From NCBI GenBank assembly GCA_047601445.1, contig JASGJH010000001.1, forward strand, positions 896,001 through 960,000: 64,000 bases of DNA, read 5' to 3'. Of the stretch, positions 36,824 to 50,863 are shown piece after piece. The notes beneath the pieces are model-generated. The model made no database searches, was not told the DNA's origin, and worked only from the letters and a program-made list of their open reading frames with translations. Every line of letters starts with the position of its first letter. Positions within the stretch are counted from its first letter, which is position 1. The DNA comes from Myxococcales bacterium (GTDB taxonomy: Bacteria > Myxococcota_A > Polyangia > Polyangiales > DASUME01). The translations under genes and the position numbers were made by a program.

Positions 36824-39727
<2,904 letters not shown>

Positions 39728-46013: not shown

Positions 46014-46775
46014 TCAGGAAGTACGGCCGCCCTTGAGGGCCTTGGTTTTCTTGCGTGGGAGCGCTTTTTCTTCCGGAGGTGCAGGAAGTTCGGGCAGTGC
46101 GAGCAGGCTGGCTAGCTCCTCCAGCCGATTGAGCTGCACCGTCAGGAAGAAGGGAGACACCTCACGCATACGGTCCAGTGTATTACTGGCGATGCGCAGC
46201 GGATTGTATGGACCGGCATCCTCCGGCACCACGTCGGTGGCTCGCGCCAACGCGAAGGAGGCCACCAGCGCGGCCACGGAGTCTTCGTACACGACGGCGC
46301 GCTGCTTTCGCAGGCTTCGCGGGGGAAGTTGGCTGTTTCGGCCGCGCGGAGGCGGTAGCGAGTCTGGCTTGGGCGCGGGCGAGGCTACCGTCTCGTAGGA
46401 GGTCGCCTGCGGGCGAGACACGGGCTGCACCGCGATTCTTCGGAGCGTGCGTGCGACTCGCACCACATCTCCTCGTTGCAACAAGTTTTGCAGACGCTCA
46501 GCGGTGTCAGGATCGGTCTGCACATGCTCGAGACGCTCGCGCACGCGGGCGGTGTCGCGATCGAAGCGCGCGCTCAGGGAGCTCAGGTGGGACTCCGCGC
46601 GTGCCACCAGGATCGCACCGACCCCACCTCCGAGCTCCTCGGCCCGGGTCAGCAAGGCGCGCACGCAATCGCAGGCGGGCGCGTCGTAGCCTCGGGCTCC
46701 CTTGGCCTCGAGGGCATCCAGGGCGCGCTCGACGTCTTCGCCGTTGGTGGGCGCGGTGGGGACCGGCTCGCTCAG
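46014..46775 (-). CDS. DUF2894-like protein, Zorya type III accessory component; probable CTG start
   Basis: VPEDAGPYNPLRIASNTLDRMREVSPFFL resembles the DUF2894 GPLNS..L..M..LSP.YL motif; AAGGAG lies 6 nt before a CTG that overlaps the zorB TGA; first canonical start is GTG 46664. Confidence 0.72.
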   Translation of the reverse strand: MSEPVPTAPTNGEDVERALDALEAKGARGYDAPACDCVRALLTRAEELGGGVGAILVARAESHLSSLSARFDRDTARVRERLEHVQTDPDTAERLQNLLQRGDVVRVARTLRRIAVQPVSRPQATSYETVASPAPKPDSLPPPRGRNSQLPPRSLRKQRAVVYEDSVAALVASFALARATDVVPEDAGPYNPLRIASNTLDRMREVSPFFLTVQLNRLEELASLLALPELPAPPEEKALPRKKTKALKGGRTS

Positions 46776-47476
46776 GGGGCGCTCCTTACTCCAGGGGTCG
46801 AGGCAGGTGCGGAGGCGGGTTCGCCTTGAGCGGTCTCGGCGTGGCGGAAGGCGAAGGGGCGCGGACGCGGGACGGGAGCCATCTCCACGCGACGGTTGCG
46901 AGCACGGTTCTCGTCGCTGTCGTTGGTGGCCACGGGATGATTCTGGCCAAAGCCCGCCGCGAACAAGGCATCTTCGGGCACGCCGGCCTCGGCCAAGGCG
47001 CGCACCACGGTGAGCGAACGCTGCGCGCTGAGCTCCCAGTTGTCGCGATAGGTGCGCAGCACCCCTCGCATGGGTAGGTCGTCGGTGAAGCCACTGACCA
47101 TCAACGACTCGTCGCGCGTGGCGAGGTAGGCGCCGAGGGGGCCAGCCATTTCGGTGAGCAGGGCGCGTCCGCTGCTGCGTAGCTCAGCCGAATTCAGGTC
47201 GAACAGCACGCTGCCCCGAATCCCGATGCGACCATCCACGAAGGTGATGAGTCCGGCCCGCAGCGGGCCCGCGAGGGCGCTCTCGAGCACGGTAAGGCGC
47301 GCCGTGGCCGCTTCGCGCTCCGAGCGTTCAGCCTGGAGGTCGCTGGCCATGCTGACCTCGAAGCTCACGATCCAGACGAAGAACAGCACGAAGACCCCGA
47401 GCAAGCAGGCCATCAGATCGCCGAAGGCTGCCCACACCGGGAGCGCGCCCGCTTGCTCTTCGTCAGGCGGATACAT
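46772..47476 (-). CDS. zorB: ZorB / MotB-like stator subunit with OmpA-like peptidoglycan-binding domain
   Basis: VWAAFGDLMACL TM with conserved Asp; VLFDLNS, VSGFTDD, NWELSAQRS and RARNRRVE motifs. Confidence 0.82.
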   Translation of the reverse strand: MYPPDEEQAGALPVWAAFGDLMACLLGVFVLFFVWIVSFEVSMASDLQAERSEREAATARLTVLESALAGPLRAGLITFVDGRIGIRGSVLFDLNSAELRSSGRALLTEMAGPLGAYLATRDESLMVSGFTDDLPMRGVLRTYRDNWELSAQRSLTVVRALAEAGVPEDALFAAGFGQNHPVATNDSDENRARNRRVEMAPVPRPRPFAFRHAETAQGEPASAPASTPGVRSAP

Positions 47477-49772
47477 CGTGCTCTCCCTTGGGGGCCGCGG
47501 GCGGGATGCTCGCACCGCGCAGCGTCCTCAGCTGCTCGAACAGCTCGCGCTGGAACTGGAGCTGGCGCGCAAACACCTCCTGCGTGGAGGCCAGCTGATC
47601 TCCCAGGGCGTCGGCGGCCGCGCCGCGACCCGCGCGCTCGACGGCGCCTTCGAGCTCGCCCAGGCTCTCCATCCAGGCTTGGGCCGCCTCGCGCTGGCGC
47701 TCCACGCTCTGGTGGAACAGCCCCGCGACGGCGCCCATTTCGACGCTCGATGCCCGCAGCACGGTGGCCGCTTCCTGCACCAGGGCGGTGGTGGCCTCGA
47801 GGCCCTTGCTGAGCTTCTCGGCGTGGCCCGTGAGCTCGCCGGCCAGTGAGTTCGCGTGTTGGGTCTGCGTGCCCTGCAAGAGGGTCTCGAGTTGCACGAA
47901 GCGGGACGCATGGTCCTCCCCCAGCTGCATCACGCGCAGCGCGTGCTCCTCGCCCTCGCGCACCAGCTGCTCGAGGATCTTTTGGGTGTTTGCCTGGACC
48001 GTGCTGTCGGCGGTCGCCGCGCGCTGAGCTTGTTCCTCGCCCAGCTTCACCAGCGTCGCCAGGGCCTCGCGAGCCGCTTCACGCGCGGAGGTCTCGCCCT
48101 CCACGGCGCGCTGCGCCTGTGCCTCGCCCAGCTTGACCAGGGCCGAAAGCGCCTCGCGGGCTGCCTCGCGCGCAGAGGCTTCGCTCTCCACGGCGCGCTG
48201 GGTCTGCTGTTCGCCGAGCTCCACCAGGGCCGTCAGGGCCTCGCGGGCGCCGTCCTGGGCGCTCTTGCCGAGCGCTTCCATTTGCTGCGTGCTGCGGCTC
48301 AGCAGCTCCTGCACCGTGTGGTCCTGCTTGTCGACGAGCTCCTGCAATCCCTGGGCGCCGCGACGCAGCGTGTCCAGGGAGCGCTCCACGCCCTCTGCCA
48401 GCGCGCGGTCGCGCTCGGCGCGCGTGCTCACGTCGCTTCCGATGCTCTCTACGAGCTGCGCGAGGTCCGCCTGGATGCGGTCCACCAGCTCGCTCCAACG
48501 GCTTGCCAGCGCCTCCTCGCGCTGTTCGCTGCGCTCGGACAAGCGCTCGCCCAGGATCGACAGCGCGTCCAGCTCTCGCTGGCCCTGCAGCGAGCGTTCG
48601 CTGGCCGCGGCATCGAGCTTGCCGGTCAGGTCGCTCAGCAGGCGCCCTGCCTCGCGGCGACGCTCCTGGGCTTCGTGATCGAGCTGGCTGGCCAGGCTCT
48701 GTGCGGCGCCCGCCAGGGTCGCGAGCTGGGCCTGTGCCTGCTCGCGGGTGGTCGCGAGCTCTTCGCGTAGCTGCGTGCGCATGCCGGCGTCGGCATCGCG
48801 ACGGGCGGCGAGGTCGCGATCCAGGGCCTCTCGGGTCGAGGCCATCTGCTTCGTCAGGGCGTCGCCGGTCTGGGCCACCACCTGCTTGAGCATCGGCGTG
48901 ACACTCTCGGAGAGCACACGTCCGGCGTCAGCCGAGCTGCGCGCGAGCTCCGTGCGCATGCGCTCCATCAGCTCCTGGGCAGACTTCTGTTGAGCCTCGA
49001 GCGTGGCCCGGTGCGCACTCTCCCAACGCTCGGCCAGCTGGCCGAGATGCACGCTCGCTTGCTCCAACGAGACCGCGGCCTTCGGCAGGGACTCGCCCTG
49101 TTGCGCCAGCTGCTGGAAGGAATCGAGCTGGCGACGCATGGGCGACAGCTCGCGCAGCGGACCTGTGGCGTAGCTCTGAGCCCGGGCCCAGGCCGCTGCC
49201 TCGGCGCGCCGCACGAAGACGGCTGCCAACCCCAACATCGCCGAAGCGCTTACGCCCGCCGCCGAGCAGCCGAAGCTGCGCGTCAGGCCGCGCATGGGAC
49301 CCGACAGCCCGCTGCGCAGAGCGTTCACGTCCGCGCTCGCCGTGAGCGCCTGGCCCGCCCCGTGGAGCGTCTCGAACAGACCGAGCAAGGTGCCCAGCAA
49401 TCCGAGCATCACCATGAAGCCCACCAAGTACGGCGTCAGGTTCTCGCCCAGCGCGGGCGCCGGCGCGTGCTCGATGCGCGCGCGCAGGAAGGCACGCAGC
49501 GGAGCGCTGGCCTTGTCGAGCACGGACTCGCTGGCCTTGCGGGGAAGGGCGTCCACCTCGCGCCCGAGGGCGAACGCGCGGCGATGGCGCAGCCATAGTT
49601 CCGCGACGCCAGCTCCGAAGCCGACCCCCATGATGCCCACGATCAGCGAAGCCACCGGGTCCTGCGCCAGGTAAACACCGAGCGCGCGCAGGATCACGCC
49701 TGCTCCGACGGCGGCTGGCAGCAGCAACGCCACCTGGCTCAAGCGCTCGCTCATGGGTTGCTTCGTGTTCAT
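47463..49772 (-). CDS. zorA: ZorA-like (DUF802-type) MotA/TolQ-fold membrane protein with long helical cytoplasmic tail
   Basis: N-terminal TMs, LTPYLVGFMVMLGLLGTLLGL and GLTRSFGCSAAGVSASAMLGL; more than 500 aa of coiled-coil-like tail; ATGA overlap and GGAGG RBS. Confidence 0.8.
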   Translation of the reverse strand: MNTKQPMSERLSQVALLLPAAVGAGVILRALGVYLAQDPVASLIVGIMGVGFGAGVAELWLRHRRAFALGREVDALPRKASESVLDKASAPLRAFLRARIEHAPAPALGENLTPYLVGFMVMLGLLGTLLGLFETLHGAGQALTASADVNALRSGLSGPMRGLTRSFGCSAAGVSASAMLGLAAVFVRRAEAAAWARAQSYATGPLRELSPMRRQLDSFQQLAQQGESLPKAAVSLEQASVHLGQLAERWESAHRATLEAQQKSAQELMERMRTELARSSADAGRVLSESVTPMLKQVVAQTGDALTKQMASTREALDRDLAARRDADAGMRTQLREELATTREQAQAQLATLAGAAQSLASQLDHEAQERRREAGRLLSDLTGKLDAAASERSLQGQRELDALSILGERLSERSEQREEALASRWSELVDRIQADLAQLVESIGSDVSTRAERDRALAEGVERSLDTLRRGAQGLQELVDKQDHTVQELLSRSTQQMEALGKSAQDGAREALTALVELGEQQTQRAVESEASAREAAREALSALVKLGEAQAQRAVEGETSAREAAREALATLVKLGEEQAQRAATADSTVQANTQKILEQLVREGEEHALRVMQLGEDHASRFVQLETLLQGTQTQHANSLAGELTGHAEKLSKGLEATTALVQEAATVLRASSVEMGAVAGLFHQSVERQREAAQAWMESLGELEGAVERAGRGAAADALGDQLASTQEVFARQLQFQRELFEQLRTLRGASIPPAAPKGEHDVSA
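47913..48260 (-). repeat. 87-nt (29-aa) intragenic tandem repeat in the ZorA tail
   Basis: AQDGAREALTALVELGEQQTQRAVESEAS / AREAAREALSALVKLGEAQAQRAVEGETS / AREAAREALATLVKLGEEQAQRAATADST plus a degenerate fourth unit. Confidence 0.85.
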
Positions 49773-50701
49773 GTGTCCTCCCCGTGTGTCGCCGCGCGCA
49801 AGAGCCCCTCGAGGCCGCGCCTCATGTGGCCGAACAGCGCCTTGGTCATGCGAATGCAGCGTTCTCGATAGCGTCCGAGCCAGCCGTTTTCCTCGGACCA
49901 CTCCGCCAGCTCGGTCTCCCCGAACTCTGCTGGCAGCTCCATCAAAGCGTGGGTGCAGGCACGCTCGAAGGTGAGCTGCGCCGCGTACTCCATGCGGTCG
50001 AGCAGCTCGCCCATCTTGCCTTGCATGGCGCGCGTGAGCGCGGCGTCGATGCGCTCCAGGCGATCGGCCGTGGGGCCCAGGGCGCGGATGTCATGGGCGA
50101 TCTCCCAGCGCAGCGTGGCGATGTGCGACTGGGCCTGGCGCAGGCTGGTGCCGAGGGCCGATGCGAAGGGCAGGCCGAGCTCGTCGACCAGCGCCTTGAA
50201 CGCCTGGGGGCGTGCGCCGGGTTCCAGGCACGGGCTTGGCCCTGCTGTTCCTTCGCTGCCCGCGCTCGCCATCGTGGCGGCGCTGTCATCGCCCGGCTCG
50301 CCACGAGGCTCCGCGCTGCGCTCCGCCGTCGCCGGGGCCGACACGAACCCGTGCCGACGCAGGGCGTCCAGATACTCGTGGGGCGCGAGCAGCGTGGGGG
50401 CGCGCCGGCCCGACAGTGGCTTGAGGGCCATCGGTTCGAGCGCGTCGAGGCGCGCCCGTACGTCTTCCAGCAGGCGCTCACCGAGCGCCGTGCTCTGGGG
50501 ATGGGGCTCGCCTTGCGGCAGCGGCTCGGCCAGCAGTTCAGCCAGCGCCACGCTACCCGGGAAGTCCATCAACGACGCGAGGACCTCGGCTGGGTTTTGA
50601 GAGACCGGGCGGTCCTCGAGTTCGATGCCGGTCGAGACCGTGGGCGCCTGAATGAGCGCGGTCCCGAAGGAACCCCGCGGAGCGAGCCTATCCTCGTTCA
50701 T
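49769..50701 (-). CDS. DUF3348-like protein, Zorya type III accessory component
   Basis: AEVLASLMDFPGSVALAELL, LRWEIAHDIRALGPTADRLERIDAAL and WLGRYRE...GLEGLLRA resemble DUF3348; first gene of the coupled operon. Confidence 0.68.
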   Translation of the reverse strand: MNEDRLAPRGSFGTALIQAPTVSTGIELEDRPVSQNPAEVLASLMDFPGSVALAELLAEPLPQGEPHPQSTALGERLLEDVRARLDALEPMALKPLSGRRAPTLLAPHEYLDALRRHGFVSAPATAERSAEPRGEPGDDSAATMASAGSEGTAGPSPCLEPGARPQAFKALVDELGLPFASALGTSLRQAQSHIATLRWEIAHDIRALGPTADRLERIDAALTRAMQGKMGELLDRMEYAAQLTFERACTHALMELPAEFGETELAEWSEENGWLGRYRERCIRMTKALFGHMRRGLEGLLRAATHGEDT

Positions 50702-50763
50702 CGTCAGGCCATGCGAGTAACGGCCTGTTTCACGAAGGGCAAGAGGGGTTTTTCCCGCGCAGC

Positions 50764-50784
50764 CGGATTTCTCAATGAAATCCG
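50764..50784. promoter_or_regulatory. Palindromic operator candidate upstream of the Zorya-like operon
   Basis: CGGATTTC-TCAAT-GAAATCCG, a perfect 8-5-8 inverted repeat about 63-83 nt upstream of ATG 50701. Confidence 0.4.
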
Positions 50785-50863
50785 CCCAAGAGACCCCTGA
50801 TTCAGCCCGGAATTGCCCGCCGATCGTCGCCTGAGGCGATCGCTTTTCGGGCCCGAACCGAGC

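Follow-up and report, generated by a model that had tools for sequence, protein, structure and literature searches.

Here, we analyze a 64,000-nucleotide stretch of DNA from a Myxococcales bacterium (GenBank assembly GCA_047601445.1, contig JASGJH010000001.1, positions 896,001 to 960,000), hereafter the window, in which four overlapping genes on the minus strand almost certainly constitute a Zorya type III operon. The genes and the region upstream of them are, in window coordinates:

49769..50701, minus strand: zorG (DUF3348; 310 aa), an all-helical protein with a four-helix bundle and a predicted partner of ZorF
47463..49772, minus strand: zorA3 (769 aa), four transmembrane (TM) segments followed by a helical cytoplasmic tail of about 580 aa with a conserved tip at residues 615-758
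46772..47476, minus strand: zorB3 (234 aa), a TM segment with Asp20 (W-x-x-FGDLM), a coiled linker and an OmpA-like peptidoglycan-binding domain
46014..46775, minus strand: zorF (DUF2894; 253 aa if the start is CTG), a helical N-terminal bundle, a disordered linker, conserved C-terminal GPYN helices and a basic tail
50702..50863, minus strand: the intergenic region 5' of zorG, with non-coding motifs conserved among congeners; a candidate promoter/operator

We follow PADLOC-DB in naming the DUF3348 protein ZorG and the DUF2894 protein ZorF; the text of Payne 2021 (PMC8565338) instead calls the DUF3348 protein ZorF.

The four genes are joined as an earlier note on this DNA, made from the sequence alone, had described: by an ATGA (49769-49772), by 14 shared nucleotides (47463-47476) and by a CTGA (46772-46775). 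A purine-rich stretch resembling a ribosome-binding site lies upstream of each of the three junctions. The start of zorF is most likely the CTG of the CTGA junction, because AAGGAG lies upstream of it and homologues align over the first, N-terminal helix; database copies of ZorF begin at residue 19 in the numbering of the CTG-started protein. GC content at third codon positions is alike in the zor genes (0.75-0.87) and their neighbors (0.79-0.87), and overall GC stays level along the window. The 9.5-Mb genome has the locus once, and no second or motor-less copy was found in it. Named relatives of the genome are Polyangiales/Myxococcales MAGs and Sorangium, which places the host among the myxobacteria of that group.

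Assignment to type III, which the earlier note had drawn from the combination of DUF3348, ZorA, ZorB and DUF2894, is borne out by PADLOC, Pfam, the Atlas comparison and gene order. All four PADLOC-DB 2.0 type III models match (ZorG3, E 8.8e-7; ZorA3, E 8e-62 over residues 15-754; ZorB3, E 5.6e-86; ZorF3, E 1.6e-17), with ZorA reaching only E 8e-4 on the ZorA1 model. Pfam places ZorF in DUF2894 (PF11445; 44.7 bits, cut-off 25) and finds an OmpA domain in ZorB (PF00691, E 2.9e-16), while DUF3348 on ZorG stays below its cut-off (21.9 bits against 25; E 1.6e-4) and DUF802, one of the families proposed for checking, finds no match on ZorA. We nonetheless count ZorG as DUF3348, because of the PADLOC match, because 36 of 49 aligned ZorG homologues match DUF3348 at E<=0.001, and because ZorG resembles Pseudomonadota DUF3348 clusters in the Atlas (features 0.93, structure TM 0.55/0.70). 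The genes stand on one strand in the order zorGABF, the canonical order of type III (PMC11946911). Individual features read from the translations are likewise borne out: the first gene product is all-helical in its AlphaFold2 (AF2) model, the second has four hydrophobic segments followed by 579 residues (a tail of more than 500 aa had been claimed), the third carries FGDLM with Asp20, one TM segment (21-39) and an OmpA domain as expected of a MotB-like subunit, and the fourth contains the GPYN...MREVSP motif.

Compared with type III as defined by Payne 2021 (PMC8565338) and with its annotated examples pAZKH of Azoarcus sp. KH32C and pTB101 of Aquabacterium olei, the window operon has the same four genes in the same order (DUF3348-ZorA-ZorB-DUF2894) and likewise no nuclease gene. 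ZorB is 54-56% identical to the annotated relatives and the TM region of ZorA 29-37%. The accessory proteins have diverged strongly: ZorF is 25-28% identical over about 100 aa, and ZorG gives no significant BLAST match. The window operon differs from known type III in the missing DUF802 match, the CTG start and the sub-threshold ZorG. With types I (ZorABCD) and II (ZorABE; PMC11946911, PMC11890865) it shares a ZorAB motor with a TM Asp, a Thr/Ser pair, a peptidoglycan-binding domain and a long tail, but its ZorA has four TM segments where E. coli ZorA has three, and ZorC, ZorD and ZorE find no match in the four zor proteins or in the 48 other open reading frames (ORFs) of the window. No nuclease or helicase gene of the system was found among those 48 ORFs, in keeping with the earlier reading.

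The motor subunits also resemble flagellar MotAB/PomAB stators in their TM motifs and OmpA-like domain, and a sequence search among solved structures places MotB/PomB domains closest to ZorB; for ZorA, such a search found no solved relative. Weak matches to MotA_ExbB (E 0.06) and MotB_plug (E 0.21) could suggest a motility or Ton/Tol-type motor (MotAB, ExbBD or AglRQS) with no relation to Zorya. We consider this very unlikely and, judging from the profile scores, largely refuted: the ZorA3 and ZorB3 models score far higher, the flanking genes are DUF3348 and DUF2894, the ZorA tail is long, and the locus is not flagellar. ZorB scores 285 bits on ZorB3 and 289 on PRK09040 (cut-off 194), whereas the flagellar MotB models all remain below their cut-offs, the best at 92 bits (PRK08944, 83 against 259; PRK09038, 92 against 283; PRK07734, 65 against 301). 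ExbBD, TolQR and AglRQS systems have an ExbD/TolR-type B subunit without an OmpA-like domain; the B subunit here carries one, and it has no ExbD match in Pfam at E<=1.

ZorA's hydrophobic segments lie at about 14-32, 43-61, 115-133 and 169-187, and include the motifs GLLGTLLG (Thr128) and FGCSAAG (Ser170). These motifs and ZorB Asp20 are conserved across Myxococcota and Betaproteobacteria, in an alignment of Sorangium, other Myxococcota, Azoarcus and Aquabacterium. In E. coli ZorAB, D26, T147 and S184 are essential, with a Thr/Ser filter (bioRxiv 2023.12.18.572097); by motif position, Asp20, Thr128 and Ser170 appear to be their equivalents. The 579-residue tail compares with about 470-1,100 residues in intact relatives, a range that excludes two short values, one due to a split ORF and the other to an overlapping ORF that was mislabelled. 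The middle of the tail varies, and the last ~140 residues are 41-48% identical to those of relatives in Sorangium and in family f42. Because the tip is conserved while the middle varies, it points to a candidate binding site at the end of the tail.

Several side observations concern the motor genes. The translation of ZorA at about residues 505-585 (window 47800-48260) contains roughly three imperfect 28-residue repeats, AREA(A)..ALVKLGE.Q.QRA, and it is by repeats of this type that tail lengths differ among ZorA relatives. One type III operon carries an actin-family gene (PF00022, E 8e-88; L079:7105-8157, genome G096) between zorA and zorB; at that position the gene is missing from a second genome of that genus (G440, L080). 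Elsewhere (L073:9443-13614, genome G014), neither zorF nor zorG lies near a divergent ZorA-like/ZorB-like pair whose tail is repetitive.

ZorG and ZorF are predicted to form a heterodimer. Their complex prediction scores 0.77 against 0.00 for the best of three controls; of 157 solved complexes, 116 reach the mark used, as do 2 of 215 mismatched pairs, figures that are approximate here as our own alignments were used. Prediction runs agree on at least 69% of contacts, with partner pLDDT (predicted local distance difference test) of at least 63. Neither protein has a solved relative by sequence at E<=0.1, so the score is unlikely to reflect memory of a known complex. In the predicted interface, ZorF residues 179-231, the GPYN...MREVSP region, pack against ZorG residues 33-61, 211-243 and 292-307. 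Columns at the interface show higher conservation than the remaining structured ones in three of four alignments, including those of ZorG (0.52 against 0.41, p 0.009) and close ZorF homologues (0.87 against 0.66, p 3e-6). The ZorG alignment holds 139 sequences, the query and the 138 of 148 new matches kept by length; in it the best-kept polar residues are Asp219 (96%), which lies in the interface, and Arg198 (88%), which lies outside it.

Neither partner offers an obvious enzyme. Both AF2 models are all-helical (pLDDT 83 for ZorG and 80 for ZorF), and no enzyme fold was found in either. At E<=0.001, Foldseek returned no match for ZorG in the PDB or viral libraries and none for ZorF in the PDB, and VIA-align on ZorF found only non-specific helical bundles, which at most spanned residues 3-136 and barely touched the conserved C-terminal part. 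Homology between the two proteins is ruled out (hhalign 1.7%). Among 50 rows of weak structural neighbors of ZorG, 12 are dynamin-family stalks, the closest of them MxB (Z 9.5, root-mean-square deviation 5.1 over 196 residues). This is below both the noise level of helical bundles (about 13) and a designed bundle (Z 10.8), and Pfam finds no GTPase domain in ZorG; the resemblance is a lead only. No fused effector was found on ZorG among the 150 representatives listed, of which five long ones were scanned (one proved an integrase junction and one an extension without assignment). The ZorF tail is basic, with 7 Lys/Arg in its last 25 residues, and is so in all aligned homologues. As a separate observation, a Cys-x-Cys at ZorF residues 35-37 (window 46665-46673) is invariant in 67 close homologues and absent from Sorangium and proteobacterial ZorF.

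Relatives without the motor suggest where the dimer might act. In two genomes (G002, locus L170; G238, locus L174), zorG and zorF form an operon with a gene for a soluble ZorA tail between them, in the order seen here; these derivatives lack the TM head, and no ZorB3 was found in either genome, whereas the window operon encodes the full motor. Because exactly zorG, the tail and zorF are kept together, the tail tip and ZorF-ZorG may represent a single module. In five f42 genomes (loci L074, L077, L078, L079 and L080) zorG is missing from the operon yet present elsewhere in the genome in all five; zorG is likewise split from zorABF at L180, and in genome G246 it lies about 3.6 kb upstream. With the queries used here, three genomes of one genus (G151, G286 and G326; L171, L172 and L173) carry zorG without detectable ZorA or ZorB3, zorF not having been searched genome-wide.

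The distribution of the operon looks like that of a chromosomal gene set. ZorB3 is present in all 19 Sorangium genomes, one copy each, in 10 of 13 genomes of f42 and in eight of the nine other genomes of the window's own genus. The ninth (90% complete, in 1,530 contigs) is missing not only ZorB3 but ZorA and the adjacent TetR gene as well, as an assembly gap would produce. At phylum level, 18 of 401 genomes are positive, including one with a divergent pair lacking F and G. Synonymous divergence (dS) among Sorangium loci is 0.18-0.36 in the zor genes and 0.19-0.32 in the flanks, and the ratio of nonsynonymous to synonymous divergence (dN/dS) 0.09-0.40 against 0.18-0.41 (40 of 120 pairs, 16 loci); between the window and locus L027, dS is 0.85-0.90 for G, A and B, 1.37 for F and 0.59-1.19 for the flanks, all of these values coming from simple counting on GC-rich DNA and serving for comparison only. 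A tree of ZorB plus the ZorA tip from 27 carrier genomes (30 were searched, and three dropped for missing or partial rpoB) has 13 of 24 splits in common with rpoB, including 10 of the 11 well-supported ones, with one well-supported split in conflict; label-shuffled trees have a mean of 0.3 splits and a maximum of 3 in common. The rpoB of the window's own genome (C1:2769852-2773911) is matched as two segments lying in separate open frames, probably because of a sequencing frameshift. At the nodes that bear on which way transfer ran between Myxococcota and Betaproteobacteria, support is just 52-55. No phage record contains ZorB3; 166 plasmid records do, and the 40 listed are 0.37-3.5 Mb in size, mostly megaplasmids. 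The operon thus looks vertically inherited in the manner of core chromosomal genes, in a pattern of old acquisition, long retention and clade-wise loss.

Type III is described as mainly a system of Pseudomonadota (bioRxiv 2023.12.18.572097; PMC11890865), and the earlier note knew the arrangement mainly from beta- and gamma-proteobacteria, but Table S5 of Payne 2021 (PMC8565338) already records it in the myxobacterial genera Chondromyces (0.5) and Sandaracinus (1), and we find it in 60 of 401 genomes of the order. A myxobacterial host is therefore already known and less surprising than had been implied. No myxobacterial names were found in the five searched supplementary files of Mariano 2025. 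Table S5 of Payne 2021 gives 0 for Sorangium, where we find ZorB3 in every genome, an undercount of type III by current tools; Sorangium ZorG reaches only E 3.2e-5 on the present model, and this weak score likely explains the zero. The last column of Fig S6 in Payne 2021 appears to give a prevalence of 91-96% in Burkholderia, Paraburkholderia, Ralstonia, Stenotrophomonas and Xanthomonas, although the assignment of that column is uncertain, and the same paper counts 6,401 type III systems against 7,742 of types I and II together, which makes type III almost as frequent as the other two combined. In the literature searched (subscription journals lying outside its coverage), no type III mechanism, ZorF-ZorG complex or core-like inheritance is described, nor any activity test of a myxobacterial type III copy; the available parts of PMC12584637, PMC11953036, PMC554113 and bioRxiv 2024.10.26.620412 contain nothing on type III mechanism.

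Building on the family identity, motor residues and fixed inheritance that the tools used here establish, we propose, at a probability of about 0.5, that type III is a motor that senses breaches of the envelope and, through the tip of its tail, deploys a ZorF-ZorG unit with no nuclease function. By analogy with the solved type I and II complexes, ZorA5-ZorB2 would form an ion-driven motor in the inner membrane, anchored to peptidoglycan by the OmpA domain of ZorB. When the envelope is breached or deformed, for instance by phage injection, ions would begin to flow through ZorB Asp20 and ZorA Thr128/Ser170, and this flow would move the ~580-residue ZorA tail; sensing, tail movement and recruitment are all carried over from types I and II, in which ZorAB recruits soluble partners, nucleases among them (PMC11890865). 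In the predicted heterodimer, the GPYN-containing helices of ZorF dock on the end of the ZorG four-helix bundle, and the dimer may be gathered at the conserved tail tip, because motor-less relatives keep exactly these parts. Having no nuclease of its own, the dimer might act as a scaffold, holding or blocking either the incoming DNA or the site of injection, with the basic C-terminal tail of ZorF as a likely contact to DNA or anionic lipid; both of these last steps are speculative. In this lineage the system would serve as a standing, chromosomally fixed defence and envelope surveillance rather than as a mobile cassette. In favor of a defensive role, the type III system of Stenotrophomonas nitritireducens DSM 12575 reduced plaquing in E. 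coli (PMC8565338).

Several observations weigh against this proposal. That single system, heterologous and induced, is the only functional evidence found for type III, and to call the window's copy a defence operon is an assumption: it sits among housekeeping genes and is vertically inherited. Core-like inheritance, the housekeeping neighborhood and the dispersal of zorG are at least as consistent with a non-defence role. The dimer at the tail tip leaves the genomes with zorG alone unexplained, interface conservation is not significant in the broad ZorF alignment (0.48 against 0.44, p 0.09), and the position of Arg198 outside the interface may leave room for a cryptic catalytic site in ZorG.

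One alternative, which we regard as possible if rather doubtful, is a housekeeping envelope machine in which the ZorA3B3 motor and ZorF-ZorG sense or repair damage, remodel the membrane or serve positioning, with phage protection secondary or a side effect. The single-copy, syntenic presence in all Sorangium genomes and all but one congener, synonymous divergence like that of the flanks, agreement with rpoB, retention of the relocated zorG in all five genomes checked, the lack of ZorB3 in phage records, the high proteobacterial percentages of Payne 2021 and the dynamin-family stalks among the neighbors of ZorG all speak for it. Yet the system is absent from most of the order, with none of 20 genomes positive in f7 and 31 of 254 in f2, and can hence be dispensed with; Sorangium often carries other defence systems too (Septu I 0.75, Shedu 0.75, CBASS I 0.625; Payne 2021, PMC8565338), anti-phage activity has been measured for one type III system, and the dynamin resemblance is below bundle noise. 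A further reading, slightly less likely still and offered tentatively, is that type III is no mobile nuclease-based cassette but an old, vertically inherited envelope machine. The tail tip of its peptidoglycan-anchored ion motor would deploy the ZorF-ZorG heterodimer, with its bundle resembling a dynamin stalk, so that the membrane is sealed or remodelled where it has been breached; phage protection would be one of its outputs, and the tip with ZorF-ZorG a separable module kept without the motor in some lineages.

Two further explanations seem improbable to us, and about equally so. The tail might recruit ZorF and ZorG as a joint nuclease with a novel fold, in line with what Mariano 2025 suggests for every subtype; nuclease recruitment in types I and II, the conserved ZorG residues Asp219, Arg198 and Asp46 and the basic ZorF tail are compatible with this, but both models are all-helical, Asp219 falls in the predicted ZorF interface, and across the 139 ZorG sequences polar residues are seldom invariant and form no conserved cluster of His, Asp or Glu. 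The discussion in Payne 2021 (PMC8565338) instead proposes abortive infection, in which ZorF and ZorG, in a sensory or regulatory role, would open ZorAB to serve as a depolarising channel. The operon has no enzymatic effector, as such a mechanism would have it, and protection is reported at a multiplicity of infection below 0.1 (PMC8565338); against it, no depolarisation was seen in types I and II (PMC11890865), and the relatives that lack the motor have no channel at all, yet retain ZorF, ZorG and the tail.

Within its family, the locus is unremarkable. What the analysis adds is the predicted ZorG-ZorF heterodimer, joined through conserved surfaces, and the chromosomal-looking inheritance, which questions whether defence is the main job of type III. 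Together they make type III function directly testable, even though the host is no surprise.

The operon is flanked by housekeeping genes. Among congeners, rsmG, pepN and a kinase lie upstream in the three loci long enough to tell (two others being too short), and a TetR gene, a methyltransferase and an outer-membrane efflux gene lie downstream in two loci; in the 17 Sorangium loci fetched, a prolyl oligopeptidase gene lies upstream and uvrA downstream. The window also has uvrA (36824-39727), about 6.3 kb downstream of zorF, where the Sorangium copies, its 70% identical orthologs and best match, lie about 2 kb downstream in all 17 loci (L030-L046). This arrangement was not seen in loci of other families, and the shared uvrA is possibly a trace of an ancestral position. 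A defence island is ruled out: the 48 other ORFs of the window give only generic PADLOC matches (methyltransferases, UvrA, dGTPase, 2OG oxygenase, kinase), no tRNA gene was found in the window, and its GC is flat. The adjacent Ser/Thr kinase gene, conserved upstream in three congeners, was considered as a fifth component and rejected: although it matches PD-T4-6 models, the genome encodes about 160 paralogues of it, and the kinase beside zorG at L068 is not its ortholog.

A scan at the locus found no match to the sigma-70 promoter consensus or to a terminator consensus. In an alignment of five regions upstream of zorG, TTTCATTG occurs in three, and CTTGC(C/T)CTTC and TACTCGC occur in four. Among these congener-conserved motifs, within 50702-50863, an inverted repeat surrounds TTTCATTGAGAAA and is a candidate promoter or operator element.

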